Assembly: GCA_016705125.1 (NCBI GenBank)
Contig: JADIYW010000028.1
Span: 192,041 to 256,040, forward strand
DNA: 64,000 bases
DNA from: Bacteroidota bacterium
Lineage (GTDB): Bacteria > Bacteroidota > Bacteroidia > Chitinophagales > JADIYW01
Direction: 5' to 3'
This document shows, piece by piece, positions 7,819 to 53,940 of this stretch (position 1 is its first letter; every line of letters starts with the position of its first letter). Under the pieces are notes generated by a model that was not told the origin of the DNA, made no database searches, and saw only the letters and a program-made list of their open reading frames with translations. Made by a program: the position numbers and the translations under genes.

Positions 7819-8938
7819 GTTTAAGTAATCATAAACCCACTCAAGAGGAAATTGTAAATACCTCAATCCCAAATCGACTTTATTGGCACGAGTTTGAAAA
7901 TAATCGTTTTTTTCAAGTAGTACATCAAGACGAAACAGGATTTGAAATAAAACTTGCTCCTAAAACAATGTTTAAGGTTAAATACCTTATAGACAAAGAA
8001 GATATTGAAGGTTTTGAACTGATAAAAGTTAGCAATATTGCAACACAAAAGGTTTCGCTTAGCAAATTCAATTTTGCTCAATTAAAAGCATTCCTTTCTT
8101 TCATAAGCGAAATTGATTTAAAAGGAATTACAGAAAAGCGGCTTAAAATTTTAGATGACCAAGAATTAGATACAGATTCTATTCGTTCTGTTAAAACATT
8201 ATTATCGAAAAAGGGTGGTGCTGAATTAGTAGAAACTTTGATAAACGAAGGCATCATTTCATCAAAGGATATTGTAAACACAGCATTTAGAAAACGAGGG
8301 CTTCAAATATTTTCAGACTTAAAAAACAACTCGGAATGACCTATGCGAAGCAACAGCTTGAAGAAGCACAGTGAGAAGGTTGTAATACTTTTGATCAGTG
8401 GATTTTTGGCTATGGTTTAGATTATCGCTATCAAGAAATTCTGCAAAGAGAAGTTCATCTTTCTGATGCAGGGTGGATGGTTCAAATACTGTAATTGGCG
8501 ATTATCTGTTGGGTGATAACTTCTTTACAACCTTTGTTGAGTTAAAGAAACCTTCAACGCCATTATTTGGAAAAAAAGGGAATCGTTCAAACTCTTGGAA
8601 ACTATCTAATGACTTAATTGAATCCGTTTCTCAAATTCTTGAACATAAAGCTACTGGTTTAATTCGCTTAGATAAACAACAATTCATAAAAGGTGAACCA
8701 GTCAACCAAAAGGCTTACGATTCAAGGGTAATTTTAATCATTGGCAAAGATTTGGAAGGAACTTGAAAATTCAAGCAATACATTAGAAAAAGAGATTAAA
8801 AAGAAAACTTTGGAGTTGTTTAGAATGGATAGCAGAAATGTTGAAATTCTAACTTTTGATGAATTGTATGAAAGAGCTTGTTTTATTGCAGAAGGCGAAA
8901 ATGAGTTAGCAACAAATAATATCAACTATTGTAGATGA
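7815..8938 (+). pseudogene. decayed Shedu-type (DUF4263-like, PD-(D/E)xK) nuclease gene, in at least 4 frame pieces
   Basis: An intact 174-aa N-terminal piece (7815-8339) is followed by WIFGYGLDY... in another frame with an in-frame TGA. Next comes DYLL...FVELKKP...SQILEHK (D..ExK core) at 8473-8766, then a C-terminal ...VEILTFDELYERA piece at 8741-8938. The start overlaps the hsdS stop (ATGA). Confidence 0.5.
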
Positions 8939-9057: not shown

Positions 9058-9345
9058 TTGAGAGATATGGGAAAAGACCTATTTCAGGATATCAAAAAAA
9101 CCATTGAAGCATTTCAAGAATCATTGAAAGGGCATTTGCCAGCATTAGAGGCAGAGATCAATGATTTGATACATTCGGGAAATAAGGACAAAAACACTAT
9201 TGAAAATACATTAGATACTTTGCTGTCATTGACATATATGGGTGTAGGGAAGGAATTATTTATACGATTATTAGAATATTACAAAACCATAGATGCAGAT
9301 GGTGCATCTTTTTATTGGAACGAATACGATAAAGACAATGAATAA
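9058..9345 (+). CDS. hypothetical small protein (95 aa)
   Basis: Open frame only, with no recognisable motif. TTG start in the track; an ATG lies at 9067. The stop overlaps the RAYT start. Confidence 0.3.
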   Translation: MRDMGKDLFQDIKKTIEAFQESLKGHLPALEAEINDLIHSGNKDKNTIENTLDTLLSLTYMGVGKELFIRLLEYYKTIDADGASFYWNEYDKDNE

Positions 9346-9949
9346 ATACAACCCCAATATCCACCACCGCCAATCCATCCGCCTGAAAGGATATGATTAT
9401 GCGCAAGCGGGTTTATATTTCATTACCATTTGTTGTCAACGTAGGGGCAATCCCTCGTGGTTGCCCTTTGGGGAAATTGAAAATGGGGAAATGAAATTAA
9501 ATGATGCGGGTATGATGGTTGAAAATGAATGGTTGAAATTGCCTAATCGATTTCAAAATATACAATTACACGAATATGTTGTGATGCCAAACCATTTCCA
9601 CGCCATTTTGGAAATCGTAGGGGCGACCCTTGTGGTCGCCCCTGTAAGGGTATCCCTTGTGGATACCCAAAATGATGATACCCAAAATGATGGTGATTTA
9701 CAAAAAGGGCAACCACAAGGGATTGCCCCTACAAAAACCATTGGTGATATGATGGATGCATTTAAATCAATAACAACCGTTGAATATATTCGTGGTATAA
9801 AAACATTGGGTTGGCAACCATTTGATGGTAAATTATGGCAACGCAATTATTGGGAACATATCATACGTGATGAACAATCCTATCAACGCATTTCAGAATA
9901 TATCATCAACAATCCTGCAAAATGGCCAGACGATAAATTTTATACATAA
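9338..9949 (+). CDS. REP-associated tyrosine transposase-like (RAYT, IS200/Y1 HUH family) protein
   Basis: MNKYNPNIHHRQSIRLKGYDY...YFITICC...MPNHFHAILEI (HUH motif)...WQRNYWEHIIRD...YIINNPAKW. I prefer the ATG at 9338 over the track start at 9293. The stop overlaps the hsdR start (TAATG). Confidence 0.7.
   Translation: MNKYNPNIHHRQSIRLKGYDYAQAGLYFITICCQRRGNPSWLPFGEIENGEMKLNDAGMMVENEWLKLPNRFQNIQLHEYVVMPNHFHAILEIVGATLVVAPVRVSLVDTQNDDTQNDGDLQKGQPQGIAPTKTIGDMMDAFKSITTVEYIRGIKTLGWQPFDGKLWQRNYWEHIIRDEQSYQRISEYIINNPAKWPDDKFYT
9441..9732. repeat. four GC-rich hairpins with a GTAG/GTAA 5' prefix and a shared CCCT(T/C)GTGG centre, all inside the RAYT ORF
   Basis: 9441-9466 is gtaggggcaatccctcgtggttgccc. 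9617-9646 is gtag+ggggcgacc/cttgt/ggtcgcccc (9-bp stem). 9648-9668 is gggtatcc/cttgt/ggataccc (8-bp stem). 9707-9732 is the reverse complement of the first copy with one mismatch. Confidence 0.65.
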
Positions 9950-22778: not shown

Positions 22779-22804
22779 CAGTCCGCTGACCGCTGACCGC
22801 CGAC
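22779..22804. repeat. CAGTCC/GCTGACCG word array
   Basis: cagtccgctgaccgctgaccgccgac, in the intergenic spacer. Confidence 0.5.
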
Positions 22805-22846
22805 TAACAACCTTGAACCTAAAATTATAAACTAAACTTAGCACCA

Positions 22847-25724: not shown

Positions 25725-27332
25725 ATGTCGATAATTAAATCAAAAATCAATACAAATTCGGCTGCATATAAAGATAATTATGCTAAAATGTTGCTTAAAA
25801 TTGAAGAGCTAAACAAGCATTTAAAGCAATCATTGTTTCAAGGGGAAGAAAAACATTTAGCAAAAGCCAAAGCACAAGGCAAATTTTTGGCTCGAGAACG
25901 CATAGAATTATTATTGGATCAAGATTCTCCATTTCTGGAATTAATGCCATTAGCTGGTTTGGGTGTAAAAGGTGGCTTTGGAACGGGTGGAACAATGGTA
26001 TCGGGTATTGGTTATGTATCTGGAAAAATGTGTTTAATTACAGCAAATGTGGGCACCAATAAAGGTGGGGCAATTGATATTGCAACATTAAAGAAAGCAC
26101 TACGCATAAATGAAATTGGGCAAGAGAATAATTTACCAGCTATCAATTTGGTAGAAAGTGCAGGAGCAAATCTGCCCGACCAGGCACAGGTTTTTAATTT
26201 AGGAGGCAATAATTTTAAAGAAATTACAAGACGTTCGAAAAAAGGAATTCCAACTATTTCCATCGTATTTGGTAACTCCACAGCTGGCGGCGCATATATT
26301 CCTGGCATGAGCGATTATACCATTATGATTAAAAACAAAGCTAAAGTGTTTTTGGCTGGCCCGCCATTAGTAAAAATGGCTACAAATGAGATTGTGGACG
26401 ACGAAACACTAGGTGGTGCTGAAATGCATTCCAAAATATCGGGTGTTTCAGATTATTTGGCTCAAGATGAATTGGATGGAATTAGAATAGCTAGGGAGTT
26501 GATAGCAAATTTGACGAGTCCACAGTCGACAGACCACAGTCAACAGTCGACCATTTACAAAGAACCCAATTATCCAATTGATGAATTACTTGGTATTGTT
26601 TCCGTAGACACAAAAGTGCCTTTTGATTGCAGAGAGGTAATTGCTAGGATTGTAGATGGCTCCGAATTTCATGAATTTAAAAAAGAATATGGAACGACCT
26701 TAATCTGTGGTTATGCCAAAATACACGGTTATCCTATTGCAATCATTAGCAATAATGGTGTTTTATTTAATGACTCATCCAATAAAGGAGCACATTTTAT
26801 TCAGTTGTGCAATATGAACAACACGCCAATTATATTTTTACAAAACATAACTGGTTTTATGGTAGGCAAGGAATATGAACAAAATGGAATGATTAAAGAT
26901 GGTGCAAAAATGATAAATGCCGTTTCTAACTCTGAAGTACCTATGTTTACATTAATGATGGGCGCGAGCTATGGAGCGGGAAATTATGCCATGTGTGGGC
27001 GTGCCTATAATCCAAGGTTTTTGTTTTCTTACCCAAATAGTATGATTGCTGTAATGGGAAGTGAACAGTTGGCTGGTGTAATGCAAATGGTAAGTAGAGA
27101 ATCGGCAATAAAAAGTGGACAAACTTTTGATGAAGCCCAAGCTGCACAAATGAAAGAATTTATGAAAGCCGAAATTGAAAAACAAAGCAACGCATTTTTC
27201 GCCTCTGGACAATTGTGGGACGATGGAATAATTGATCCACGTGATACCAGAAATGTTTTCGGTTTGGTATTGGCGCTGACTTATATGAATGAAGTAAAAG
27301 GAACAAACGCATGGGGCGTGTTTAGAATGTAG
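25725..27332 (+). CDS. methylcrotonyl-CoA carboxylase beta subunit (carboxyltransferase)
   Basis: 535 aa; two crotonase-like carboxyltransferase domains (VESAGANLPDQ, GNSTAGGAYIPGMSDY, GPPLVKMATNE, LGGAEMH, NITGFMVGKEYE). Confidence 0.88.
   Translation: MSIIKSKINTNSAAYKDNYAKMLLKIEELNKHLKQSLFQGEEKHLAKAKAQGKFLARERIELLLDQDSPFLELMPLAGLGVKGGFGTGGTMVSGIGYVSGKMCLITANVGTNKGGAIDIATLKKALRINEIGQENNLPAINLVESAGANLPDQAQVFNLGGNNFKEITRRSKKGIPTISIVFGNSTAGGAYIPGMSDYTIMIKNKAKVFLAGPPLVKMATNEIVDDETLGGAEMHSKISGVSDYLAQDELDGIRIARELIANLTSPQSTDHSQQSTIYKEPNYPIDELLGIVSVDTKVPFDCREVIARIVDGSEFHEFKKEYGTTLICGYAKIHGYPIAIISNNGVLFNDSSNKGAHFIQLCNMNNTPIIFLQNITGFMVGKEYEQNGMIKDGAKMINAVSNSEVPMFTLMMGASYGAGNYAMCGRAYNPRFLFSYPNSMIAVMGSEQLAGVMQMVSRESAIKSGQTFDEAQAAQMKEFMKAEIEKQSNAFFASGQLWDDGIIDPRDTRNVFGLVLALTYMNEVKGTNAWGVFRM
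26520..26552 (+). repeat. GTCGAC-word stretch read in frame (PQSTDHSQQST) in the inter-domain linker
   Basis: ccacagtcgacagaccacagtcaacagtcgacc. Confidence 0.6.
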
Positions 27333-27430
27333 GGGAATTTATGATTTATGATTTGGGATTTATGATTTGGGGATAGGAATGAAGAATTTAAGAATTAGGA
27401 TAAGGAATTTAAGATTTGAAAATTTAAAAA
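27333..27430. repeat. ATTTATG/ATTTGGG/AATTTAAG word array with no cargo ORF
   Basis: Starts right after the MCC-beta stop: gggaatttatgatttatgatttgggatttatgatttgggg...aggaatttaagatttgaaaattt. Confidence 0.6.
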
Positions 27431-28244: not shown

Positions 28245-30257
28245 ATGTCTCAAATCTCAAATCCAAAGAAAATAACAAAACTTTTAGTAGCCAATCGGGG
28301 TGAAATAGCCATCCGGATTTTCAAAACTTGTCGCGAAATGGGCATTGCAACCGTTGCTGTTTTCTCTGATGCCGATGAAAATAGTTTATTTGTTAAAATG
28401 GCCGATGAAGCAGTTCGTATTGGTGGTAAGCAACCAAATGAATCGTATTTGGTAATGGATAAAATTATAGATGCAGCGAAACAAACAGGTGCAAATGCCA
28501 TTCATCCAGGTTATGGTTTTTTAAGTGAGAAAGTCGAATTTGCACAACGTGTAATCGATGAAAATATAATTTGGGTAGGTCCACATCCAAAAGCCATTGA
28601 AGTAATGGGATCTAAAATTGGTGCAAAAAAAATAATGCAATCGCATAATGTACCCACCATTCCTGGCTATCAAGGCGACGACCAAAGCGAATCAACCATT
28701 AAATCAAAAGCTATTGAAATTGGATTTCCCGTTTTGCTAAAAGCAAGTGCTGGCGGTGGCGGGAAAGGTATGCGTATCGTTCGGCAGGAAAGTGAATTGG
28801 ATAAAGCCATCAACGAAGCAAAATCCGAAGCTTTAAATGGCTTTGGTGATGATACTTTATTAATAGAAAAATATTTTGACACATCAAGACATGTAGAGTT
28901 TCAAATTTTTGGCGATAAACATGGAAACGCACTTCATTTATTTGAAAGAGAATGTAGCATCCAACGCCGTTATCAAAAAGTAGTAGAAGAAAGTCCTTCG
29001 CCATTTATTACCCAAGAAACACGCCAAAAAATGGGCGATGCTGCAGTTGCTGCGTGTAAAGCAATTGCTTATGATAATGCTGGAACGGTAGAATTTATTG
29101 TGGCACCTGATCAATCTTTTTATTTTTTGGAAGTAAATACTCGTTTGCAAGTAGAGCATCCAATTACTGAAGAAGTAACAGGTTTGGATTTAGTTCGATT
29201 GCAAATAGAAGTTGCCGAAGGTCGCCCAATTCCTTTCAACCAAGAAGCAATTTCGCAATGCGGACATGCAATTGAAGTACGAGTATATGCAGAAGATGCA
29301 GCCAATAATTTTATGCCTGTGAGTGGTAAAATAATAGATTGGATTCCTGCAAAAATTGATGGTTTGCGTTATGATACTGGAATAGAAAGTGGTTCAGAGA
29401 TTTCTACTTTTTACGATCCAATGATTGCAAAAATAATTGCAAAAGGGAAAAACAGACAAGAAGCTATTTCAAAACTTACATTGGCCTTACAAGAATTAGT
29501 TTTAACAGGTTTTACCACAAACAAAAACTTCCTTACTGCAATTTTACAAAATGAAGATTTTCAAAAGGGAGATTTTGATACCCATTTTTTAGATAAAATA
29601 TTCAAATATGAAGGCGAAAAATACAATCAAGAATCTATTGATATTTTAACTTGTGCTTTACAACATTATCGCTTTTTAGAACGGCAGAAAAATCAACCCA
29701 TTTCCAACCTGTCAGGTTGGAGAAATAATTTTTATCAACCACAACAAGAAAAATATAGCTTTGGTGGTTTTGAGTTTTTAGTAGAATATAAAAATGAAAA
29801 TGGTGTTTTGAATATTTCATTTGCGGAAAAAACATTTAAAAGTAAAAATTGTCCACAGACCACTGTCGACTGTCGACCGTTGACCGCTGACATCTTTTAC
29901 GTTTTCGAAATAAACAATATCCGTCGTAAATTTTTCTTCTCACAAAATGGCAATCAATATTTTGTTCATTCACCACAACTTGGGCAAATTGTTTTACTAA
30001 GTATAGATAAATTCCCGAATCCAATAGAAGAAACGGTAAAAGGTGGTTATGCTGCACCGATGCCTGGAGAGGTTACAATTGTTTTGGTAAAAGCTGGTGA
30101 TACGGTGAAAAGTGGTGATGCATTATTAAAAATGATTTCGATGAAAATGGAAAGCACCATTGAAGCACAAGCCGATGGCGAGGTGGAAGAAATTTATGTA
30201 AGCGACAAACAATTTGTAGAAGCAGGAACTTTGTTGTTAAAGATGAAGGAGGAATGA
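28245..30257 (+). CDS. methylcrotonyl-CoA carboxylase alpha subunit (biotin carboxylase + biotinyl domain)
   Basis: 670 aa; KLLVANRGEIAIRI, GGGGKGMR, EVNTRLQVEHP, and C-terminal biotinylation SMKME. Confidence 0.9.
   Translation: MSQISNPKKITKLLVANRGEIAIRIFKTCREMGIATVAVFSDADENSLFVKMADEAVRIGGKQPNESYLVMDKIIDAAKQTGANAIHPGYGFLSEKVEFAQRVIDENIIWVGPHPKAIEVMGSKIGAKKIMQSHNVPTIPGYQGDDQSESTIKSKAIEIGFPVLLKASAGGGGKGMRIVRQESELDKAINEAKSEALNGFGDDTLLIEKYFDTSRHVEFQIFGDKHGNALHLFERECSIQRRYQKVVEESPSPFITQETRQKMGDAAVAACKAIAYDNAGTVEFIVAPDQSFYFLEVNTRLQVEHPITEEVTGLDLVRLQIEVAEGRPIPFNQEAISQCGHAIEVRVYAEDAANNFMPVSGKIIDWIPAKIDGLRYDTGIESGSEISTFYDPMIAKIIAKGKNRQEAISKLTLALQELVLTGFTTNKNFLTAILQNEDFQKGDFDTHFLDKIFKYEGEKYNQESIDILTCALQHYRFLERQKNQPISNLSGWRNNFYQPQQEKYSFGGFEFLVEYKNENGVLNISFAEKTFKSKNCPQTTVDCRPLTADIFYVFEINNIRRKFFFSQNGNQYFVHSPQLGQIVLLSIDKFPNPIEETVKGGYAAPMPGEVTIVLVKAGDTVKSGDALLKMISMKMESTIEAQADGEVEEIYVSDKQFVEAGTLLLKMKEE
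29851..29891 (+). repeat. GTCGAC-word stretch read in frame (PQTTVDCRPLTAD) between the BC and biotinyl domains
   Basis: gtccacagaccactgtcgactgtcgaccgttgaccgctgac. Confidence 0.6.
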
Positions 30258-30306
30258 TTTGAGGATTTGAGGATTTGGAAATTTGAAAATTTGAAAATGA
30301 AATATT

Positions 30307-30831
30307 ATGAAAGAAATTATACCCATACAACAAAAAATATTTGAAATCAGGGGGCAAAAAGTTATGCTTGCCCCGATAGCTATCGGGGTTGATTTGGCTG
30401 TTTTGTATGAAGTTGAGACTAGGGTTTTAAATCAGGCAATTAAAAGGAATATAGAAAGTTTTCCAGATGATTTTATGTTTCAACTTTCTAAATCGGAATG
30501 GCAAAACATGTCATCACAATTTGTGATGACATATCCAATCAAAAGACCAAAATCTGCCATTCCTTATGCATTTACTGAGCATGGCGTAACCATGTTAGCA
30601 AGTGTTTTGAAAAGTCCCAAAGCAAGACAAATGAATATACAAATAGTTAGGGCATTTATTGCACTCAGAAATTGGGCACTTAATTATAAAGAATTAGCAG
30701 ATAAAATTGCGCAATTGGAAAATGACAACGATAAAAAATTTGCAGATATTTATGAGGCTTTAAATTATTTAGTAAGCGAAAAAGAAATAGAAACAAATCA
30801 AAAGGAACGAAATAAAATTGGATTTAAATAA
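30307..30831 (+). CDS. ORF6N (KilA-N-like DNA-binding) domain protein, copy 1
   Basis: IFEIRGQKVML...LAVLYEVETRVLNQAIKRN...FPDDFMFQL, and a coiled C-terminus. Confidence 0.7.
   Translation: MKEIIPIQQKIFEIRGQKVMLAPIAIGVDLAVLYEVETRVLNQAIKRNIESFPDDFMFQLSKSEWQNMSSQFVMTYPIKRPKSAIPYAFTEHGVTMLASVLKSPKARQMNIQIVRAFIALRNWALNYKELADKIAQLENDNDKKFADIYEALNYLVSEKEIETNQKERNKIGFK
30371..30388. repeat. 18-bp perfect GC-rich palindrome CCCCGATAGCTATCGGGG inside ORF6N copy 1
   Basis: Read directly. Encodes the extra residues APIAIGV where the paralogue has DF, inside the conserved VMLD-DLA-LY motif. Confidence 0.7.
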
Positions 30832-30868
30832 AAAATATAAATAATATACAAATCAAAAAGTAATAAAA

Positions 30869-31372
30869 ATGATCGAAACAATTTCCATACAACACAAAAT
30901 ATTTGAAATCAGAGGGCAGAAAGTTATGCTCGATTTTGATTTAGCTCAATTGTATGAAATAGAAACAAAGGTACTTAAGCAAAGTATCAGAAGGAATTTA
31001 AATAGATTCCCTTCTGATTTTATGTTTGAACTTACACCCGATGAATTTACCAGCTTGAGGTCACAAATTGTGACCTCAAGCTGGGGCGGAACAAGATATT
31101 TGCCTTTTGCGTTTACCGAACATGGTGTAACGATGTTAGCAAGTATCCTAAATTCTGACAAAGCAATTAATATAAACATTCAAATAGTTAGGGCATTTAT
31201 TACACTAAGAAATTGGGCACTTAATTATAAAGAATTAGCAGATAAAATTGCGCAATTGGAAAATGACAACGATAAAAAATTTGCAGACATTTATGAAGCA
31301 CTTAATTATTTAGTATCTGAAAAAGAAATGGAAACAAATCAAAAAGAACGTAAAAAAATAGGATTTAAATAA
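30869..31372 (+). CDS. ORF6N (KilA-N-like DNA-binding) domain protein, copy 2
   Basis: IFEIRGQKVMLDFDLAQLYEIETKVLKQSIRRN...FPSDFMFEL. The last 192 nt are nearly identical to copy 1. Confidence 0.75.
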   Translation: MIETISIQHKIFEIRGQKVMLDFDLAQLYEIETKVLKQSIRRNLNRFPSDFMFELTPDEFTSLRSQIVTSSWGGTRYLPFAFTEHGVTMLASILNSDKAININIQIVRAFITLRNWALNYKELADKIAQLENDNDKKFADIYEALNYLVSEKEMETNQKERKKIGFK

Positions 31373-31418
31373 CTCGAATTCCTAAATCATAAATCTAAAA
31401 TCATAAATCATAAATAAT

Positions 31419-32243
31419 ATGCTATACACACAAGAACAAACAGCCAATTTCGCAGAACAAAGTTTTGCTTATTTAATTGTAGAAGAAAAAGAAAATGTAT
31501 TAAGCATTACGCTCAATCGGCCTGATAAACGCAATGCCTTTCACATGCCTTTGGCAAATGAATTAGCGTATGCTTTAGCGTATGCGCATTATAACAATTC
31601 AATTTGGTGCGTAGTTCTCAAAGCAAATGGTCCAACTTTTTGTGCTGGTGCCGATTTAAAAGCATTTGCAGGTGCCGATACTACCGAAAAACCTTCAACC
31701 ATTCCTATGCCGAAAGACATGGTAAAACTCGGCGATGAATTCAATGGTTTACACAAACCTTGCATTGCACAAGTACATGCAGATGTTTACGCGGGTGGCT
31801 TCCTTATGATCGGCGGTGCCACACATGTAGTGGCAGTTGAGTCTGCAAAATTTGGTTTACCTGAAGTAAAACGCGGCATCTTTCCATTCCAAGTAATGGC
31901 AACATTAGAACCATTAATGTCGGCAAGGCAATTACTAGATTTATGTTTGAGGGCCAAAACATTAACCGCTCAAGAAGCAAAAGAAGTTGGATTAGTATCA
32001 GTTGTAGTACATCCTGACAGGTTGGAAGAAACGGTTCAAAATTTAGTTTCTGATATAAAAGAACAATCGCCAACTGCCATACGTTTGGGCCTAAAAGCAT
32101 TTCAAGAAATGAAAACAAAAAATGCCGACGACAAACACAAATACTTACATGCTATGTTGATGCAATGTTTACAGAGTAAAGATGCGGCAGAAGGTTTATT
32201 AGCATTCAAAGAAAAACGAAAAGCAAACTGGACAGGCAATTAA
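31419..32243 (+). CDS. enoyl-CoA hydratase family (methylglutaconyl-CoA hydratase-like)
   Basis: 274 aa; crotonase motifs NRPDKRNAF, FCAGADLK, GLPEVKRGIFP. Confidence 0.8.
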   Translation: MLYTQEQTANFAEQSFAYLIVEEKENVLSITLNRPDKRNAFHMPLANELAYALAYAHYNNSIWCVVLKANGPTFCAGADLKAFAGADTTEKPSTIPMPKDMVKLGDEFNGLHKPCIAQVHADVYAGGFLMIGGATHVVAVESAKFGLPEVKRGIFPFQVMATLEPLMSARQLLDLCLRAKTLTAQEAKEVGLVSVVVHPDRLEETVQNLVSDIKEQSPTAIRLGLKAFQEMKTKNADDKHKYLHAMLMQCLQSKDAAEGLLAFKEKRKANWTGN

Positions 32244-32248
32244 AAACT

Positions 32249-32329
32249 AACCGCAAAGGTCTCAAAGATATTACGCAAAGTTCTCTAAGAAAAACTATTC
32301 AATTCAAAAATTGCGCTCTTTGAAGTGTT
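32249..32329. repeat. cargo-less pair of inverted CGCAAAG-type word arrays
   Basis: Left: aaccgcaaaggtctcaaagatattacgcaaagttctctaag (32249-32289). Right: ttgcgctctttgaagtgtt (32311-32329). The left end matches 17/19 with the left flank of the GxxExxY-2 cassette. Confidence 0.45.
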
Positions 32330-32346
32330 AAAAAATAAAAAAGAAT

Positions 32347-33741
32347 ATGAGCAAAACAATAAGAATAGCAGGAGCACAAGGATTTTATGGTGATTCACCT
32401 TTGGGTGCAATGCAAATTGCCATGCAAGGCGCAGCCGATTATTTGATGCACGATGCATTAGCAGAACTAACTTTATCTATCTTACAAAAAGATAAGATAA
32501 AAGACCCAACGATGGGTTATGCCCGAGATATTGAGGTACATGCACGCACTTTATACCCAATGGCATTTGCAAAAGGCATTAAAATTGTAACCAATAGTGG
32601 CGGATTAAACCCTGAAAGTGCCGCCGAAAAGGTAAAAGCCATTTTAGAAAAACAGGGCATTAAAGGCGTCAAAATAGCAACCATTACTGGTGATGATGTG
32701 CTGGCACGTTTACCAGAATTTAAAGAAAATAATATAGAGTTAAATAACTTAGATGACAACTCCTCTTATTACGATTCCAAGTTTCCACCTACTCATGCCA
32801 ATGTATATATAGGTGCACAAAAAGTAAAAGAAGCATTGGACAATGGTGCCAATTTAATTTTAGCTGGTAGAGTTGCAGATCCTTGTTTGGCTTTGGGTAT
32901 TATGGCACACGAATACAATTGGAAAATAGACGATGCAACTTCACAGGAAGATTGGGACAGAATGGCATTTGCAATTACAATTGGTCATATTTTGGAATGT
33001 GGCGGACAAGCAAGTGGTGGCAATGCCTACTCCGAATGGCCTATGAATTATAGTGTGTCAGATTTGGGTTATCCCATTGCTCATGTGAATGAAGACTGCA
33101 CAGCCATTTTAACAAAAGCAGACAATACCGGAGGTAAAGTATCGAGAAATACAATTAGGGAGCAGCTGGTTTATGAAATTCACGATCCTACAAATTATAT
33201 AACGCCCGATGTAGTTGTTGACTTATCTAATATCATTTTGAAAGATGAGTCAGAAAATAGAGTATCCATTTCAGGTATAAAAGGCAAACCAAGACCAGAA
33301 AAATTAAAATTGTGTATCGGACAACATGAAGGATTTGTAACAGAGCAATTTTTCTTCTTCTCCTACCCTTTTGCTTATGATAAATTACAAATGTTCATAA
33401 AAGCCACCAAAGAAACATGGGCAAAATTACCCGTTCAAATTCTCGAATCTCGATTCAACATAATAGGAGTTAATGGTTTACATGAAGATGCGGTAGAAAT
33501 ACCAGATGTTGCAGAATTAAATCAGAGAAGTGAACTAGGATTACGAATTGCTATCAAACATAAAGACGACAGAACAGGAAAAACAGCCATTGCTGGTATT
33601 GTTTGTTTGGGTTTAAATGGCCCTCCAGGTGTAATTTCAGTGCCAGGTTGGGGAAATATGAATAGGGCAATGTTGAGTTTGTTTCCTTGTTTGATACCAA
33701 GAGAATTGATTGAACCTGAATTAAAATATATTGAAGTATAA
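32347..33741 (+). CDS. AtuA-like acyclic terpene utilisation protein (DUF1446), N-terminal body
   Basis: 464 aa; IRIAGAQGFYGDSP...DYLMHDALAELTL N-terminus typical of DUF1446. Confidence 0.7.
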   Translation: MSKTIRIAGAQGFYGDSPLGAMQIAMQGAADYLMHDALAELTLSILQKDKIKDPTMGYARDIEVHARTLYPMAFAKGIKIVTNSGGLNPESAAEKVKAILEKQGIKGVKIATITGDDVLARLPEFKENNIELNNLDDNSSYYDSKFPPTHANVYIGAQKVKEALDNGANLILAGRVADPCLALGIMAHEYNWKIDDATSQEDWDRMAFAITIGHILECGGQASGGNAYSEWPMNYSVSDLGYPIAHVNEDCTAILTKADNTGGKVSRNTIREQLVYEIHDPTNYITPDVVVDLSNIILKDESENRVSISGIKGKPRPEKLKLCIGQHEGFVTEQFFFFSYPFAYDKLQMFIKATKETWAKLPVQILESRFNIIGVNGLHEDAVEIPDVAELNQRSELGLRIAIKHKDDRTGKTAIAGIVCLGLNGPPGVISVPGWGNMNRAMLSLFPCLIPRELIEPELKYIEV

Positions 33742-33744
33742 ATT

Positions 33745-34184
33745 GTCCATAGTCGACGGTCGACAGTCGACCGTGGACTGTTAAACTAAATAATTATGGC
33801 ATTTAAATTTGAGGAATTAAGAATTTGGCAAAAAAGTGTTCAACTTACTACCATTATAGATGAAGTTGCTGACGGATTTCCCAAAAAAGAAATTTATAGC
33901 TTATCAAACCAAATTCGAAGAGCTGCTGATTCTGTATCGTTAAATATTGCAGAAGGTTCAACTGGTCAAACAAATCCTGAATTTAGAAGATTTTTTGGGT
34001 ATGGCTTTAAGATCTGGCATTGAAGTAATCGGTTGTATTTATTTAGCCAAAGAAAGAAAAATAATTAAAGAAGAAGATTTCAAAAGGGTATATGAAGGAT
34101 ATGAAGCATTAATTGTTTCAATTCAATCCCTTAGAAAAACATTATAAACTTTTCGCGGTGGACTGTAGACCGTGGACTGTGGAC
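33745..34184 (+). mobile_element. 440-bp cassette: four-helix-bundle gene bracketed by 29-bp imperfect terminal inverted repeats of GTCGAC words
   Basis: 33745-33773 gtccatagtcgacggtcgacagtcgaccg matches the reverse complement of 34156-34184 (gtccacagtccacggtctacagtccaccg) at 25/29 positions. Confidence 0.55.
33796..34147 (+). pseudogene. four-helix-bundle protein (23S rRNA intervening-sequence protein family), frameshifted
   Basis: FEELRIWQKS...LSNQIRRAADSVSLNIAEG...EFRRF, then LGMALRSGIEV...L in the +1 frame. The break is at T6, 33991-33996. Confidence 0.7.
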
Positions 34185-34200
34185 TTTAAAAAAAAACAAT

Positions 34201-34674
34201 ATGGAAAAAAAAATAGAATTTATGTTACGAGCCATTGAGCTATCAAAAAATGGGCTTGAAAGCGGAAAAGGTGGACCTTTCGGATGTGTAATTGTAAAAG
34301 ATGGAAAAATAATTGGTGAAGGCAACAATCAGGTTACATCCACCAATGATCCCACTGCTCATGCCGAAATGGTTGCAATAAGAAATGCATGCAAAAACAT
34401 AAACAGCTTTCAACTCGAAGGCTGCGAAGTATACACTTCATGCGAACCATGTCCTATGTGTTTAGGAGCTATTTATTGGGCACGTCCCGATAAAATTTAT
34501 TTTGCAAATAATCGATCAGATGCTGCTGAAATAGGCTTCGACGATGCTTTTATTTATGATGAAATAGAAGAAAAAATAGAAAATAGGCAGATACAAATGG
34601 AGCCTTTGGGTAGAATGGAGGCTTTGGAAATTTTTAAACAATGGAAATTAAAAACAGATAAAATTGAATACTAA
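34201..34674 (+). CDS. CDA-fold nucleoside/guanine deaminase
   Basis: GGPFGCVIVKDGKIIGEGNNQVTSTNDPTAHAEMVAIR and PCPMCLGA zinc motifs. Resembles B. subtilis GuaD. Confidence 0.75.
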   Translation: MEKKIEFMLRAIELSKNGLESGKGGPFGCVIVKDGKIIGEGNNQVTSTNDPTAHAEMVAIRNACKNINSFQLEGCEVYTSCEPCPMCLGAIYWARPDKIYFANNRSDAAEIGFDDAFIYDEIEEKIENRQIQMEPLGRMEALEIFKQWKLKTDKIEY

Positions 34675-34685
34675 AATTTAAAATT

Positions 34686-35003
34686 ATGGCAATGATAAAA
34701 TTAATAGATATTGCATCGGCTCGAAGTGGCGATAAAAACAATGTGTGCAATATTGGTGTAATGGCGAAATCCGTAAATGATTATGACACTTTAAAAAAGT
34801 ACCTAACCCCTGAACTTGTAAAAGCACATTTCAAGGGATTGATAAAAGGCAAAGTGGAACGCTTTGAATGGGATAGTTTAGAATCTCTAAATTTTGTATG
34901 CCATGAAGCCTTAGATGGTGGTGCATCTCGAAGTATGCGTATGGATAGTTTGGGTAAAAATTTTAGCTCCCATTTATTGAGACTTGAGATAGAAATAAAT
35001 TAA
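34686..35003 (+). CDS. small protein resembling the C-terminal domain of full-length AtuA
   Basis: 105 aa; IASARSGDKNNVCNIGVMAK resembles the RSGDKG..N.GV motif I recall from AtuA C-termini. Confidence 0.45.
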   Translation: MAMIKLIDIASARSGDKNNVCNIGVMAKSVNDYDTLKKYLTPELVKAHFKGLIKGKVERFEWDSLESLNFVCHEALDGGASRSMRMDSLGKNFSSHLLRLEIEIN

Positions 35004-35537
35004 CCGCAAAGTAAACAAAGTTTTTTCGCAAAGTTCAAAAAGAAAAATGAAAGAAAATGAGTTATCACATATTGTAATTGGATTAGCAATTGATATACAT
35101 AGTTCACTTGGTCCTGGATTATTAGAAAGTGCATATCAAGAATGTTTATTTTACAAATTAAATAAAGAAGGATTCAAAGTTGAAAAAGAAAAAACAATGC
35201 CATTAATTTTTGAGGGCTTAAAATTAGATTGTGGTTATAGAATAGATTTATTAGTTGAAAATAAATTAGTAATCGAAATAAAAAGTGTAACGGAATTAAA
35301 TGATGTTCATTTAGCACAAACCCTTACATACTTAAAATTAGGAGATTATAAACTTGGATTATTAATAAACTTTAATGTAACTCTTTTAAAATTTGGAATA
35401 AAAAGAGTAGTAAATGGATTATAAACTTTTAAATTCTTACTTTAAAAACTTGAAAGACTTATATATTATTTAAAAAACTAATTACATATAAAAACCTTTG
35501 CAAACTTTGCTTAAAAACTTTAAATTCTTTGCGGTAA
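35001..35537 (+). mobile_element. cassette: GxxExxY gene bracketed by ~42-bp imperfect inverted CGCAAAG-word arms
   Basis: Left arm 35001-35042 and the reverse complement of right arm 35495-35537 match at 32/42 positions ungapped. The left arm begins with the host stop codon (aatTAAccgcaaag). Confidence 0.45.
35047..35424 (+). CDS. GxxExxY protein (PD-(D/E)xK nuclease-fold mini-protein), copy 1
   Basis: 125 aa; GPGLLESAYQECL (GxxExxY) and YRIDLLVENKLVIEIKS (D..ExK). Confidence 0.8.
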   Translation: MKENELSHIVIGLAIDIHSSLGPGLLESAYQECLFYKLNKEGFKVEKEKTMPLIFEGLKLDCGYRIDLLVENKLVIEIKSVTELNDVHLAQTLTYLKLGDYKLGLLINFNVTLLKFGIKRVVNGL

Positions 35538-35551
35538 AAAAAAATTAAAAA

Positions 35552-37057
35552 ATGACAAACTTAGAACAATATTACTTAACAGAAGAGCACCATTTATTTC
35601 GTAATTCATTGCGTGATTTTTTGGATAAAGAAGTGGTGCCGTTTGTAGATCAATGGGAAATTGACCATCAGGTGCCAAAAGAAATTTTTAGAAAATTTGG
35701 CGAAATGGGTTATTTTGGATTAACTCAAGAAGAGAAATATGGCGGCTCTAATTTAGATTTTTGGTACGACGTAATCTTTATCGAAGAAGTTTCAAAATCC
35801 AATTCCGGTGGTTTTGGCGCTAGTATTTCGGCTCATCCTTATTTGTCTATGTCACACTTGAAACATGAAGGAAGTGATTTTTTGAAAGATAAATATTTGC
35901 CAAAAGCCATTTCTGGAGATTGGCATGGCGCACTAGCAATCACCGAGCCTCACGCTGGATCAGATGTTGCGAACATAAAAACAACAGCAAAAAAAGACGG
36001 CGACTTTTATATAATAAATGGATCAAAATGTTTTATTACCAATGGTGTATCCGCCGATTATATAATTGTAGCTTGCAAAACTGCTAACGGAATTTCCATG
36101 ATTTTAGTGGAAGGAAATGCTATAGGTTTATCAAAAAACAATTTGAATAAATTAGGATGGAAAGCAAGTGATACAGCTGAGTTAGCATTTGATAATGTCA
36201 AAGTACCAATTACCAATTTATTGGGCGAAGAAGGTAAAGGATTTTACTATATCATGCAACGATTTGAATTAGAAAGACTTACACTAGCACTTGGGGCATT
36301 GGCTTCTTCAGAATGGGCATTGCAATATGCATTACAATACATGAACGAACGAAAGGCTTTTGGAAAAACAATAAATAAATTCCAAGTTTTAAGACATAGA
36401 ATAGCACAAATGGCTGCTGAAATAGAAAATGTAAAAACATTTACTTACCACGTTTGCAAAATGTATAATGACAAAAATTATTGTGTAAAAGAAGCATCAA
36501 TGTCAAAATTATTGGCCACCGAATTGTCAGATAAAGTGGCCTACCAATGCTTGCAAATGTTTGGTGGATACGGCTACATGGAAGAATACAAGATTGCACG
36601 CTTTTTCAGAGATTCGCGATTAGGAACTATTGGTGGTGGCAGTTCTGAAATTATGTGTGAGATTATTGCAAAGATGGTTATTGATGATGTGAGTTATGGT
36701 CGACAGACGACGGTCGACAGTCCAAAGCAAAAGGAATTAAACATTGAAGACATAATTAGTAGCTTACCAAATCGATTTAAAAAAGAAAAAGCAAATGGTA
36801 TTGAAATGACCATTCTATTTGAGTTTGAAAATGATTTATACTATCAAATCGAAATAAAAAACCAAAATATTGTTTTGTCCACGGTCGACAGTCGACAGTC
36901 GACAGTGGACTTAACCATTACAACCACAACCGAAACATACATCGCAGTAGAAACGGGCAAACTAAATCCCCAAGAAGCATTTATGAGTGGGAAAATAAAA
37001 GTAAGCGATTTGGGTAAAATGATGCAGTTTGGTTCTCTTTTTAAAAAATATAATTAA
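35552..37057 (+). CDS. acyl-CoA dehydrogenase fused to a C-terminal SCP2 domain (candidate isovaleryl-CoA dehydrogenase of the cluster)
   Basis: 501 aa; ACAD motifs (ALAITEPHAGSD, FGGYGYMEEY, GTIGGGSSEI). The C-terminal ~110 aa resembles the stand-alone SCP2 ORF at 19543-19878. Confidence 0.85.
   Translation: MTNLEQYYLTEEHHLFRNSLRDFLDKEVVPFVDQWEIDHQVPKEIFRKFGEMGYFGLTQEEKYGGSNLDFWYDVIFIEEVSKSNSGGFGASISAHPYLSMSHLKHEGSDFLKDKYLPKAISGDWHGALAITEPHAGSDVANIKTTAKKDGDFYIINGSKCFITNGVSADYIIVACKTANGISMILVEGNAIGLSKNNLNKLGWKASDTAELAFDNVKVPITNLLGEEGKGFYYIMQRFELERLTLALGALASSEWALQYALQYMNERKAFGKTINKFQVLRHRIAQMAAEIENVKTFTYHVCKMYNDKNYCVKEASMSKLLATELSDKVAYQCLQMFGGYGYMEEYKIARFFRDSRLGTIGGGSSEIMCEIIAKMVIDDVSYGRQTTVDSPKQKELNIEDIISSLPNRFKKEKANGIEMTILFEFENDLYYQIEIKNQNIVLSTVDSRQSTVDLTITTTTETYIAVETGKLNPQEAFMSGKIKVSDLGKMMQFGSLFKKYN
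36698..36723 (+). repeat. GTCGAC-word stretch read in frame (GRQTTVDSP) at the ACAD/SCP2 junction
   Basis: ggtcgacagacgacggtcgacagtcc. Confidence 0.6.
36877..36910 (+). repeat. GTCGAC-word stretch read in frame (STVDSRQSTVD) inside the SCP2 domain
   Basis: gtccacggtcgacagtcgacagtcgacagtggac; its ends are self-complementary (gtccac/gtggac). Confidence 0.6.
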
Positions 37058-37074: not shown

Positions 37075-37523
37075 TTCCGAAACTTCGGAATTACACAAAG
37101 CACACAAAGATGAAAGAAAATGATTTAGCATATAAAGTAATAGGTTTAGCAATTGAAGTACACAATGTATTAGGACCTGGATTATTAGAAAGTGCATATC
37201 AGGAATGCTTATTTTATAAAATAGAAAAAGAAGGATTACAAGTAGTAAAAGAAAAAGCAATGCCATTGATTTATGAAGAAGTAAAATTGGATTGTGGTTA
37301 TAGAATAGATTTATTAGTAGAAAATAAATTAGTTATAGAAATAAAAAGTGTAGATGCTTTAAATGAAATACATCTTGCACAAACTTTAACTTATCTTAAA
37401 TTAGGAAAATATAAACTTGGATTATTAATAAATTTCAACACCATACTTTTAAAAAGTGGCATAAAACGAATTATAAACGGAAATCCCACTTAGTGAACTT
37501 TGTGTAATTCCGAAGTTTCGGAA
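37075..37523 (+). mobile_element. 449-bp cassette: GxxExxY gene bracketed by perfect 26-bp terminal inverted repeats
   Basis: 37075-37100 ttccgaaacttcggaattacacaaag is the exact reverse complement of 37498-37523 ctttgtgtaattccgaagtttcggaa. Each repeat also contains a ttccgaa/ttcggaa hairpin. Confidence 0.6.
37110..37493 (+). CDS. GxxExxY protein (PD-(D/E)xK nuclease-fold mini-protein), copy 2
   Basis: MKENDLAYKVIGLAIEVHNVLGPGLLESAYQECL...YRIDLLVENKLVIEIKS. I prefer the ATG at 37110 over the track start at 37029, which runs through the upstream gene end and the inverted repeat. Confidence 0.8.
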   Translation: MKENDLAYKVIGLAIEVHNVLGPGLLESAYQECLFYKIEKEGLQVVKEKAMPLIYEEVKLDCGYRIDLLVENKLVIEIKSVDALNEIHLAQTLTYLKLGKYKLGLLINFNTILLKSGIKRIINGNPT

Positions 37524-38673
37524 TTACCCAGTTTGTGTTAAAAAAACAAACAAAATAAATTTAATTTTTTAAAAAAATACACCCCCAAAATGAGTGCAAC
37601 ACAATCTTATCTTAGAAAAGAACACGAATCTTTCAGACAAACGATTCGACAATTTTTAGAAAAAGAAGCCATTCCAAATATTGACCAATGGGAATTGGAT
37701 GGCAAAATACCACGTGTGAAGAAATATCAAAAGTTTTCTCTGGTGGATTTACCATTACTGCCGCCGTGCAAGCATTTATGAGCACTCCATACATTATGAA
37801 ACACGGTAGTGAATATTTGAAAGAAAACTATCTAAAGCCTGCCATAACAGGAGAAAAAATTGGCTGTATCGGAATTACCGAACCAGGTGCTGGCAGTGAT
37901 GCAGCAAATATTCAAACTCGTGCTATTAAAGAAGGCGATTATTATATCGTAAATGGCTCAAAAACATTTATTACAAATGGTATTTATGGACAATTTGTAA
38001 TATTGGTTTGTAAAACAAACCCCGAAGCCGGCGCTGCAGGTGTAAGCCTATTGGTATTGGATTTGGATGCAGAAGGGGTGTCAAAAAACAAACTTAAAAA
38101 ATTAGGATGGCACGCATCCGACACAGCGGAATTGCATTTTGACAATGTTAAAGTACCCGTCAAAAATTTATTGGGTGAAGAAGGAAAAGGATTTTATTAC
38201 CTCATGGGAGGCCTACAATTAGAACGTTTATCTGCTGGAATAATGGGCTATGCATCCTGTGAGGCCATGTTGGAATACTCCTTAAAATACATGAATGAGC
38301 GAAGTGCTTTTGGAAGAACAATCAATAAATTTCAAGTATTGCGACACAGAGTAGCACAATTAGCAGCAGAAATAGAAAGCATTAAAATATTTACACTACA
38401 AACTTGCAAAATGCATGAAGAGGGTAAATATGTTGTAAAAGAATGCTCGATGGTGAAATTATTAGCCACCGAATTAGCAGACAAATGTATGTATCAATGT
38501 CTACAGTTTTTTGGAGGTTATGGCTATATGGAAGAATACAAAGTGGCACGTGCTTTCAGGGATTCTCGAATAGGAACAATTGGAGGTGGTTCGTCAGAAA
38601 TTATGCGCGAAATAATCGCTAAAATGGTCATAGATGATATTGGTTATGAAAGAGCCGAATCTAATGTAGATGG

Positions 38674-38713
38674 CCAACCGTCGACGGTCGACAGTCAACC
38701 GTTGACTGTGGAC
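38674..38713 (+). repeat. GTCGAC-word stretch read in frame (QPSTVDSQPLTVD) at the ACAD/SCP2 junction of copy 2
   Basis: ccaaccgtcgacggtcgacagtcaaccgttgactgtggac. Confidence 0.6.
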
Positions 38714-38839
38714 AAAATATTTGCCACTTTACCCGCACGTTTTAAAACCGAAAAAGCAGTTGGAAAGAACTTAAATTTAGAATTCAGGTTTGACTCCTCT
38801 ACTTATTATGTACTTATAAAAGATGGGAATTTAGAAATT

Positions 38840-38875
38840 CAGTCGACCGACGACCGTCGACCGTCGACCGTGGAT
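38840..38875 (+). repeat. GTCGAC-word stretch read in frame (QSTDDRRPSTVD) inside the SCP2 domain of copy 2
   Basis: cagtcgaccgacgaccgtcgaccgtcgaccgtggat. Confidence 0.6.
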
Positions 38876-39028
38876 TGTTTAGTAGAAACAGATGATGCGA
38901 CTTATATCGCTGTTGAAACTGGGAAATTAAACCCTCAAGAAGCCTTTATGACAGGAAAAATAAAGGTATCCGATTTGATGCAAATGATGGCTTTTGGAGC
39001 ACTTTTCAAAAAACTATAGGTAAATAAA

Positions 39029-41246: not shown

Positions 41247-41415
41247 ATGGGAAGTTGGCAGTCCACTTATAAGTTATTGGTTATTGAGTGATTGGTAATT
41301 AGTGATTGGTAATTAGTTATTAGATGTCGAAAGTGGAGAAGTTGACAGTTCACTGCAATTAGGTTTTTAATTCAACATTTCTTGATTCTATTCAACATTT
41401 AAAATTAAACATTCA
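41247..41415. repeat. word-mosaic array (CAGTCCAC words, then TTATTGG/TGATTGG words, then ATTCAACATT words)
   Basis: Fills the whole spacer between convergent genes. gaagttg(g/a)cagt(c/t)cact occurs twice. Confidence 0.6.
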
Positions 41416-52150: not shown

Positions 52151-52266
52151 TTTTGGTTGTTCGGTTATTGGTTATTTAGTTATTGGTGATTTAGTTATTT
52201 AGTTATTGGTTATTTGTTATTGGGGTATTCAAAATTAACCATTCAACATTAACCATTCAACATTAT
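52151..52266. repeat. word-mosaic array (TTATTGG/TTATTTAG words, then AACCATTCAACATT words)
   Basis: Fills the entire spacer between the two hydrolase paralogues. Confidence 0.6.
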
Positions 52267-53569: not shown

Positions 53570-53940
53570 TTTTAACTAATTGAGGAGGTCAGCAGTCGAA
53601 AGTCAGCAGTCCGCTGAAAAGTTATTTGTTATTAAGTTATTGGTTATTAGAAGAGTTTAATTTGAGGATGTTTACTGTTGACGGTTCACTGAAAGGAAGT
53701 CCACGGTCCGCGGTCGACAGTCCACTGTAAGGTTATTGGTTATTTGGTTACTTGTATTCATTAAACATTTAAAATTTAACAATTTTGTCCTTCATTAGCT
53801 AATTCGCTAATTATTTCATTATTTAATTCGCCCTTTCTTGATTCTTGTTTCTAAAAATCTTGGGTCCATTAAACATTTAACATTAAGAATTCAACATTTA
53901 AATTTCATTACTTAATTATTTCATTCATTCCCTTTCTTTT
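53570..53940. repeat. long word-mosaic array, including the inverted copy (B) of the 19971-20175 composite repeat
   Basis: taattcgctaattatttcatt (53800-53820) is the exact reverse complement of the 21-bp core at 19996/20081. 53833-53877 matches the reverse complement of 20031-20068 (34/38 plus a 7-nt indel). CAGTC and TTATTGG modules lie at 53588-53755. Confidence 0.65.

Follow-up and report, generated by a model that had tools for sequence, protein, structure and literature searches.

A four-helix-bundle gene between inverted heptamer arrays in an Atu/Liu-like operon of a Bacteroidota bacterium resembles the intervening sequences of 23S rRNA

Where the intervening sequences (IVSs) of bacterial rRNA and the conserved open reading frame (ORF) within them come from, how mobile they are and what they are for has been debated since the early 1990s on a handful of rRNA examples. 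The IVS of Coxiella measures 428–444 nt, lies at helix 45 and has a 28-bp terminal stem with an S23p (PF05635) ORF in its loop; in its 5' arm the heptamer GACAGAT is repeated in tandem three or four times, depending on the strain, and RNase III cuts the stem at the first repeat (PMC4990558). IVS alleles of Brucella are laterally exchanged (PMC2743711), further work has been devoted to rRNA IVSs (PMC2672173), and 23S_rRNA_IVP ORFs have been found in rRNA insertions of the Candidate Phyla Radiation (10.1101/2024.02.27.582315). Here we describe a 440-nt unit of the same design that lies outside rRNA. It was found in a 64,000-nt stretch (hereafter the window) of a Bacteroidota bacterium of the order Chitinophagales (assembly GCA_016705125.1, contig JADIYW010000028.1, positions 192,041–256,040), between the genes for AtuA and a CDA-fold deaminase, and it consists of a gene for a four-helix-bundle (4HB) protein framed by two arms of inverted heptamer arrays.

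The first 29 nt of the unit (33745–33773) are identical to the reverse complement of its last 29 nt (34156–34184) at 25 positions. These arms had been pointed out in a first-pass annotation of the window; the match was reproduced on recomputation, and with a repeat finder the arms reached 38 nt, at 79% (33745–33782 and 34147–34184). The annotation had also placed the start of the 440-nt unit 3 nt past the AtuA stop codon, in agreement with an AtuA ORF that ends at 33741. Both arms are periodic, as Tandem Repeats Finder reported a period of 7 for the left array (33751–33771, 3.0 copies) as well as the right one (34158–34185, 4.0 copies), and the left arm is in addition palindromic by itself (GTCCAT..GTCGAC..GTGGAC). 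The enclosed gene is on the same strand as those for AtuA and the deaminase, and its product belongs to the family first noted in rRNA IVSs, as had been proposed: it matches PF05635 (23S_rRNA_IVP; E 1.2e-29, 103 bits, cutoff 33.8) and TIGR02436 (E 7e-28, 97 bits, cutoff 24), the nearest solved structure being XCC0516 (2gsc, E 4e-12). The frameshift already noticed in a T run was traced to a single extra base in TTTTTTGGG (33991–33999, T6GGG), which disrupts the ORF; the window copy is interrupted, unlike the uninterrupted ORF of ~110–130 aa expected for TIGR02436, and deletion of one T in silico gives an intact protein of 116 aa.

With regard to RNA folding, the arms were paired over ~30 bp in both the minimum-free-energy and the centroid prediction for the whole unit, with a ΔG of −119.5 kcal/mol (z −5.9) that was equalled by 0 of 100 shuffled sequences. 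The spacer holding the left arm is also predicted to fold alone (z −4.2), whereas that holding the right arm is not (z −0.8). We considered the reading that every spacer in this genome is a hairpin and the gene incidental, and rejected it: a fold better than that of shuffles was obtained for only 6 of 31 spacers, and the right-arm spacer and that of the first PDDEXK_3 gene (PDDEXK_3a) do not fold alone. A scan of 33500–34400 gave no intrinsic terminator, weak sigma-70-like matches and no convincing promoter.

The plainest alternative denies the unit: a small gene would by chance be flanked by two independent simple-repeat arrays that use locally abundant, self-complementary words. GTCGAC is a palindrome that occurs 19 times in the window, mostly within arrays; the left arm alone is a complete palindrome; and in one related locus (L003) a related array stands alone after AtuA, with no cassette there. 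When only composition was kept, neither 2000 shuffles nor 2000 random window pairs gave a 29-mer match better than 19–20, compared to the 25 observed. Under a stricter word model, in which other local heptamer arrays were paired in random orientation, the mean was 18 of 29 and 25 or more were reached with P = 0.02. Within the window alone, then, the inversion of the arms is real but not overwhelming. Ranking the flank inversion of 59 window genes placed the 4HB gene second, in a top three completed by two genes of another family, GxxExxY/PDDEXK_3. The comparative data given below contradict the chance reading more directly, and we regard it as very improbable.

How the unit compares with the 23S rRNA IVSs of Coxiella burnetii, Leptospira, Xanthomonas and Brucella can be stated point by point. 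It has the same PF05635 cargo and, at 440 nt, a length within the 428–444 nt of the Coxiella element; a sense ORF occupies the loop, the termini are complementary over a stem of ~28–30 bp, and tandem heptamers make up the arms. Short versions without an ORF exist, and alleles are exchanged laterally, as in the Brucella IVSs and the spacers described here. In contrast, IVSs are found at helix 9, 25 or 45 of 23S rRNA and the present unit between cistrons of a protein-coding operon; excision by RNase III has been demonstrated for the former and is presumed for the latter; and the Bacteroidota layout is common, occurs at fixed sites and is shared by a second cargo family. Since it lies between AtuA and the deaminase and there is no rRNA in the window (no Rfam family reached its gathering score in the window, and 33600–34300 gave chance-level hits alone), the cassette is not a strict member of the rRNA IVSs, but its design is identical.

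The tie to IVSs proved closer than the first-pass annotation had guessed. Scanning a genome collection for (GACAGAT)3 gave at least 120 stretches, and 80 arrays were then scanned with a narrow hidden Markov model (HMM). Coxiella was absent among the matches listed, a 4HB gene adjoins 4 of the 80 arrays, and most (GACAGAT)3 arrays are unrelated to 4HB cassettes. Two loci, from Burkholderiales (L233) and Rhodospirillales (L186), are complete large-subunit rRNA genes as judged by Rfam, and both carry a 4HB ORF at helix 45 between an upstream CAGATGA-type and a downstream, inverted TCTGTCC-type array, i.e. the same design as in the window. The scan also recovered two cassettes of this build outside rRNA, one from an Elusimicrobia metagenome-assembled genome (MAG) and one from a Saprospiraceae MAG.

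To examine the site in relatives, we searched for AtuA and obtained 16 orthologous loci from Chitinophagales and Saprospirales MAGs. Nine relatives have an empty spacer, AtuA being followed after 55–150 nt by AtuAfd; in a tenth (L006) the gap is 431 nt and holds a distant 4HB gene. An orthologous 4HB cassette with inverted heptamer arms is present at the same site in L008 (84% aa identity) and in a metagenome contig, L305 (81%), in which the cassette is the entire spacer. Another 4HB gene lies between the enoyl-CoA hydratase (ECH) and AtuA genes in six relatives (L002, L003, L005, L007, L008 and L009). All near-operon copies with both flanks in the contig (the upstream flank is cut off in L002) have mutually reverse-complementary arrays, whose words vary by copy and are non-palindromic (GTTCAC/GTGAAC, GTCCGCA/TGCGGAC, GACCAC/GTGGTC and GTCCGAAA/TTTCGGAC). 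An A-rich tail comparable to the leader that follows the right arm in the window is present in L008, L003, L005 and L009.

The ECH–AtuA copies fall into three lineages that share 57–69% aa identity in hosts whose AtuA proteins are 86–91% identical. Such divergent lineages in genomes with similar AtuA proteins indicate repeated occupation of this spacer. The arm words track the cassette lineage, not the site. We therefore rejected the idea that a cassette splits a hairpin already present at the site: three lineages, each with its own words, occur in one spacer, and the words follow the cargo family.

At the species level, the deaminase protein was matched exactly in eight other assemblies, and an exact look-up of AtuA gave no match. 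The cassette is identical across same-species assemblies save at the frameshift site, which reads T5GGGT in L177, L179 and L180 and T6GGA in L178, all four in frame. The 4HB protein is intact (116 aa) in the first three and in L304 (100% identical protein), and the partial copy of L178 is in frame. The T6GGGT of the window seems to be either a mutation private to this assembly, an error in the homopolymer or the consensus of alleles from two strains. The suggestion that this copy might be dead or phase-variable is not supported, four assemblies of the species being in frame and the number of arm repeats constant between strains. Among short-read contigs of the species, L180 starts within the left arm and L178 and L181–L183 start within the 4HB gene, and the cassette with its repeat arms may break assemblies.

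Assembly L177 and the window are ~98–99% identical in ECH and AtuA, but their ECH–AtuA spacers are completely different: L177 has a full 4HB cassette with GTCCGCAG arms, and the window a CAAAG-word spacer without an ORF. L177 and the window also diverge in the final codons of ECH and the initial codons of AtuA. Filled and empty AtuAfd–ACAD1 spacers likewise differ by wholesale replacement, which includes the last codons and the stop of the upstream gene. Replacement of a whole spacer together with gene ends fits homologous exchange of spacer alleles, not cut-and-paste insertion, and cassette exchange within the species accordingly looks, from the aligned alleles, like homologous replacement of the whole spacer.

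The mobility at which the first-pass annotation had hinted thus stands in so far as the cassette is present or absent at orthologous sites. A classical transposon is not supported: no target-site duplication could be defined for either 4HB or PDDEXK_3 cassettes, and no near-identical copy was found at other loci. In the metagenome scan, relatives of the 4HB protein with more than 70% identity (100% and 81%) were confined to the same AtuA locus. Pfam scans, which covered 20 window ORFs in and around the operon and other selected ORFs, gave no transposase, and the only nuclease-like hits were PD-(D/E)XK genes in cassettes of their own.

The AtuA–AtuAfd spacer is a hot spot among these genomes. 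The deaminase is found there only in this species (window, L177–L183 and L304). Inspection of translations suggested a hydrolase-like ORF of ~290 aa in L009 and, in L008, an apparent PIN-toxin/antitoxin pair after AtuA together with extra arrays (7800–8877); L011 and L013 have two unknown ORFs, and L007 a PDDEXK_3 gene (tblastn). No inverted arms were seen around those inserts of this spacer that are neither 4HB nor PDDEXK genes.

We next asked how general the layout is, using 80 loci from genomes across Bacteroidota, collected with a profile of the near-operon 4HB proteins, and a further 80 loci from metagenomes (241 million records), collected with the single repaired 4HB protein as query. 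Arms were evaluated by the median local score of the two arms of a locus against each other, against arms of other loci and in direct orientation. For the 4HB genes of genomes (78 loci) these scores were 30, 18 and 17 (Mann–Whitney U test, p = 3e-18), for those of metagenomes (68 loci) 34, 18 and 16 (p = 9e-18), and for GxxExxY/PDDEXK_3 genes (77 loci) 29, 21 and 18 (p = 3e-7). The cassette layout recurs at hundreds of Bacteroidota loci. Inverted arms around other 4HB copies, on which the first-pass annotation had staked its proposal, are seen in all near-operon copies with both flanks and in two independent samples, with differing words. Its counter-suggestion, that local abundance of GTCGAC explains the arms, is weakened by the P of 0.02 and overturned by the non-palindromic words of relatives. 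Together with the right arm, which is unable to fold alone, and the rank of the 4HB gene between two other cargo genes, the own-versus-cross tests in three samples speak against two arrays placed by chance.

It is also evident that the arms differ between the two cargo families. Expressed as means per 110 nt of flank, AGTC was counted 2.13 times upstream and 0.28 times downstream of 4HB genes, and GACT 0.55 and 2.53 times; around GxxExxY genes, CAAAG was counted 2.09 times upstream and 0.73 times downstream, and CTTTG 0.37 and 1.99 times. There was no cross-over, neither word family being found around the other cargo. The repeat period is 7–8 nt in 4HB cassettes versus 9 nt in GxxExxY cassettes, and coding controls are non-periodic; these periods refer to mean profiles, a stricter threshold (82% self-match) being too harsh. 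Arm word and period are thus inherited with the cargo family.

In independent contexts, cargo genes co-directional with both neighbours outnumber antisense ones by 12 to 5 for 4HB and by 27 to 3 for GxxExxY. The 4HB gene lies between genes for a C-N hydrolase and agmatine deiminase in 36 of 75 scorable genome loci, and with metagenomes added, 54 of 116 loci share the most frequent context. As about half of the scorable loci lie between the same two genes, 4HB cassettes stay long-term at fixed sites. In the hydrolase/agmatine deiminase context (36 loci within L021–L093) the arms are built of (A/G)AGWCNGNA octamers, the hydrolase is N-carbamoylputrescine amidase-like as judged from its translation, and the loci are labelled Chitinophagaceae, Cyclobacteriaceae, Mucilaginibacter, Hufsiella and Epilithonimonas. 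L069 and L074 (Mucilaginibacter) and L060 (Lacibacter) are among those with this arrangement; the cassette of Algoriphagus (L054) has different neighbours. The long residence suggests that the 4HB cassette is now useful to the polyamine operon.

From these observations we lean, at somewhat better than even confidence, towards reading the 440-bp unit as an IVS-type cassette that hitch-hikes in an mRNA operon. It would have no promoter of its own and be transcribed together with the operon, and its arms would zip into a stem of ~30 bp across a loop of 364 nt. Because of the repeat build, any unit could nucleate with any partner, which would make the pairing tolerant of slippage and possible in many registers. 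A double-strand RNase, probably RNase III as in the Coxiella IVS, would then cut the stem, free the ORF RNA and separate the flanking cistrons. Such separation would do little harm and keep the cost to the host operon low, and the cassette would persist for long at fixed sites, its loss, gain or exchange being due mainly to homologous recombination through flanking genes. Transcription with the operon, pairing of the arms in the transcript, the RNase cut and release of the ORF RNA are steps that we infer, and the weakest of them is function at the RNA level.

Several points weigh against this hitch-hiker model. If the stem were maintained as sense RNA, an excess of G·U pairs would be expected among the mismatches, but 40 G·U-type mismatches were counted in the sense orientation versus 59 of the A·C type. 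At 4HB loci, predicted energies give the antisense duplex a higher stability than its sense counterpart (p = 4e-6). In 4HB loci L017–L096 the mismatches tend to place an A in the upstream arm against a C in the downstream one, by which the antisense strand would form the better duplex. The left arm, predicted to fold by itself, would be a local competitor of the long-range stem. Moreover, words and periods specific to a cargo family would fit protein-binding sites on DNA too, and the first arrival of a cassette at a site is not accounted for by the model.

These points leave room for a mobile element that acts at the DNA level, which we consider possible but on the unlikely side. Its arms would be terminal or subterminal repeat arrays, bound by the cargo protein or by an enzyme acting in trans, for transposition or homing; in the GxxExxY case the empty allele would be cleaved by the PD-(D/E)XK nuclease, and the cassette would be copied in with its flanks during repair. 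The cargo-specific arm words and periods across the phylum are in line with this, as are the conserved TTAACC(A/G)CAAAG termini of PDDEXK_3 cassettes and the D..ExK core, which is invariant in the four aligned GxxExxY copies. So are the different cassette lineages in the same spacer of close relatives, the gene ends co-converted beside swapped spacers, the spread of PDDEXK_3 over 37 independent contexts among 65 loci, and a wobble asymmetry that does not favour sense RNA. However, no target-site duplication is definable, close relatives of the window 4HB protein are restricted to the same locus in 241 million metagenome records, and one context holds about half of the flank-scorable 4HB loci (36/75; 54/116). 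No catalytic activity is known for the 4HB protein. Nor would a self-sufficient DNA element be expected to show so strong a bias for the sense orientation.

A tentative extension, of about the same low probability, is that IVSs are one face of widespread repeat-armed cassettes whose cargo protein, a 4HB ring or a GxxExxY nuclease, recognises the family-specific units of 7–9 nt in its own arms for maintenance or for homing into empty alleles, making a hitherto unrecognised selfish element with its own recognition code; such cassettes would be placed in any unit whose transcription is high or constitutive, including mRNA operons.

The oligomeric state of the 4HB family raises a further alternative. 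XCC0516, the closest solved relative, is a homopentamer (PMC4990558, PMC10053308), and the homologue Avd, of diversity-generating retroelements, has the same 4HB fold, is pentameric and acts in complex with RNA (PMC10053308). A pentameric ring could read four to five tandem units of 7–8 nt in RNA, much like the trp RNA-binding attenuation protein (TRAP), and control its own or neighbouring expression, in which case the complementarity of the arms would be secondary. The arms in the window have 5 and 4 units, and the words drift outside a conserved AGTC core. Yet the words differ widely within the same protein family (GTTCAC, GACCAC, CAGATGA), an unrelated nuclease family has the same layout, and a reverse-complementary second array is not predicted although a locus's own arms are significantly complementary. 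We think such TRAP-like binding improbable, and still prefer the hitch-hiking cassette. Avd itself acts on nucleic acid; Pfam scans, in which no dedicated search for retroelements was made, gave no reverse transcriptase here, and no template/variable repeat pair was seen.

Other classes of repeat match parts of the unit. TAACTGA repeats occur in Beggiatoaceae, Cyanobacteria and a few Bacteroidetes as direct arrays near start codons, with one inverted case among 170 sets (PMC4679880). Like these and the short tandemly repeated repetitive (STRR) sequences of cyanobacteria, the arms are tandem 7-nt intergenic units of gliding or filamentous lineages, sometimes lie in ORFs and differ in copy number between relatives; unlike the arms, those repeats are not described as paired inverted arrays around a specific gene family. 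This class therefore fits the arms only and not the whole unit. Repetitive extragenic palindromes (REPs) and REPINs, with their tyrosine transposase RAYT, are likewise intergenic hairpin-forming repeats that sometimes occur in operons. REPINs are shorter than 120 nt, lack an ORF and are near-identical within a genome, whereas the cassette arms vary by copy, show no GTAG signature and have a gene between them. Integron cassettes are also promoter-less small ORFs with imperfect inverted repeats, serially inserted in one transcription unit. Each has a single local hairpin, attC, with conserved core sites, whereas the present arms flank the ORF on both sides and pair across it. By the criterion of a self-folding attC the right arm (z −0.8) gives no integron match; integrase and core sites were not specifically searched for.

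The rRNA IVSs, heptamer repeats and the homology to Avd were known, and IVS-type cassettes with inverted arrays outside rRNA appear to be new. The literature consulted gave no description of 4HB or GxxExxY genes outside rRNA as inverted-array cassettes, a finding of partial coverage and absence of evidence only.

A RAYT/IS200-like Y1 transposase ORF (9293–9949, + strand) lies 24 kb away, recognised by inspection of its translation. It carries in-frame GC-rich hairpin words GTAGGGGCAATCCCTCGTGGTTGCCC with an inverted copy (37 nt, 89% complementary), at 9441–9477, 9618–9643 and 9696–9732, and no inverted repeat in the window is longer. The words are REP-like GTAG...CTAC elements inside the gene that would mobilise them, and they are unrelated to the cassette arms. 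The gene that follows resembles a type I restriction enzyme R subunit, again from its translation only.

The host operon (Table 1) is Atu/Liu-like by Pfam scans and occupies 25.7–39 kb of the window, which has a G+C content of 33%. It holds both GxxExxY cassettes. The first has arms of CAAAG/CTTTG words and ends in TTAACCGCAAAG ... CTTTGCGGTAA, and PDDEXK_3 cassettes in general have conserved termini TTAACC(A/G)CAAAG ... CTTTG(T/C)GGTTAA. The TTAA at both ends may be read as either repeat or duplication. The ORF6N pair upstream of ECH is preceded by ATTTGARR octamers (30257–30298) and followed by TAAATCA heptamers (31383–31419) that are weakly inverse (score 25), and possibly adds a third cargo to this cassette design. 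The second ACAD-SCP2 gene is ~70 nt shorter than its orthologues and out of frame near codon 40, making it a second disrupted gene near the frameshifted cassette.

Table 1. Features of the 440-bp cassette, the GxxExxY cassettes and the host operon (window coordinates)
Feature	Coordinates	Strand	Remarks
Carboxyltransferase, DUF4442, biotin carboxylase-BCCP		+	first genes of the operon, in this order
Two ORF6N genes	30307–31372	+	between biotin carboxylase-BCCP and ECH
Enoyl-CoA hydratase (ECH)	31419–32243	+	Pfam scans
ECH–AtuA spacer	32248–32335	+	CAAAG/CTTTG words, no ORF, weak fold (z −1.2)
AtuA	32347–33741	+	PF07287, E 3e-115
440-bp cassette	33745–34184	+	between AtuA and CDA-fold deaminase
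Left arm	33745–33782	+	five heptamers: GTCCATA, GTCGACG, GTCGACA, GTCGACC, GTGGACT
4HB gene	33796–34147	+	PF05635/TIGR02436; split over two frames
Right arm	34147–34184	+	GTGGACT, GTAGACC, GTGGACT, GTGGAC; reverse complement of left arm
A-rich leader TTTAAAAAAAAACAAT	34185–34200	+	from right arm to deaminase start codon
CDA-fold deaminase	34201–34674	+	directly downstream of cassette
AtuAfd	34686–35003	+	AtuA ferredoxin-like domain, separate gene
First GxxExxY cassette	35000–35538	+	arms 35000–35042 / 35496–35538, 43 nt, 77%
GxxExxY/PDDEXK_3 gene no. 1	35047–35424	+	followed by an ACAD-SCP2 fusion
Second GxxExxY cassette	37075–37523	+	arms 37075–37109 / 37489–37523, 35 nt, 91%
GxxExxY/PDDEXK_3 gene no. 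2	37122–37493	+	followed by second ACAD-SCP2
Second ACAD-SCP2	37590–39019	+	

The words of the 4HB arms also occur in frame inside neighbouring housekeeping genes, as the first-pass annotation had stated: in the carboxyltransferase gene (26517–26550), in the linker of the biotin carboxylase (29851–29890) and in both ACAD-SCP2 genes (36699–36722, 36877–36911, 38675–38714 and 38842–38875). These GTCGAC-type arrays encode 'STVD' peptide repeats in loops or linkers of the four enzymes, and each has the polarity GTCCAC...GTCGAC...GTGGAC and so forms a small palindrome. The loops are kept at the same positions in orthologues from L009, L010, L012 and L013, and not in those from L001 and L016. In both ACAD-SCP2 genes the two arrays, 120–150 nt apart, flank the start of the SCP2 domain. 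Further intergenic arrays with a period of 7 or 8 (22783–22805, 27337–27368, 41273–41321, 52153–52265, 53620–53650, 53699–53725 and 53867–53905) consist of GC-rich (CCGCTGA, GTCCACG) or AT-rich (ATTTATG, GTTATTG, ATTAAAC, CATTTAA) words; no partner arrays or cargo were found for them.

The locus clearly exemplifies a wider pattern that can be tested, in which a class of element described decades ago as IVSs is not confined to ribosomal RNA. If this class fills intercistronic spacers of Bacteroidota, nature would offer filled, empty and swapped alleles by the hundreds for comparison, and cultured carriers exist in which dependence on RNase III and binding of the arms by the protein could be studied. 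The second cargo family, with its intact nuclease motif, would suggest a possible way of spread. For annotation, genes listed as 'Four helix bundle protein' or 'GxxExxY protein' and the repeat-rich spacers adjoining them would be parts of one element.

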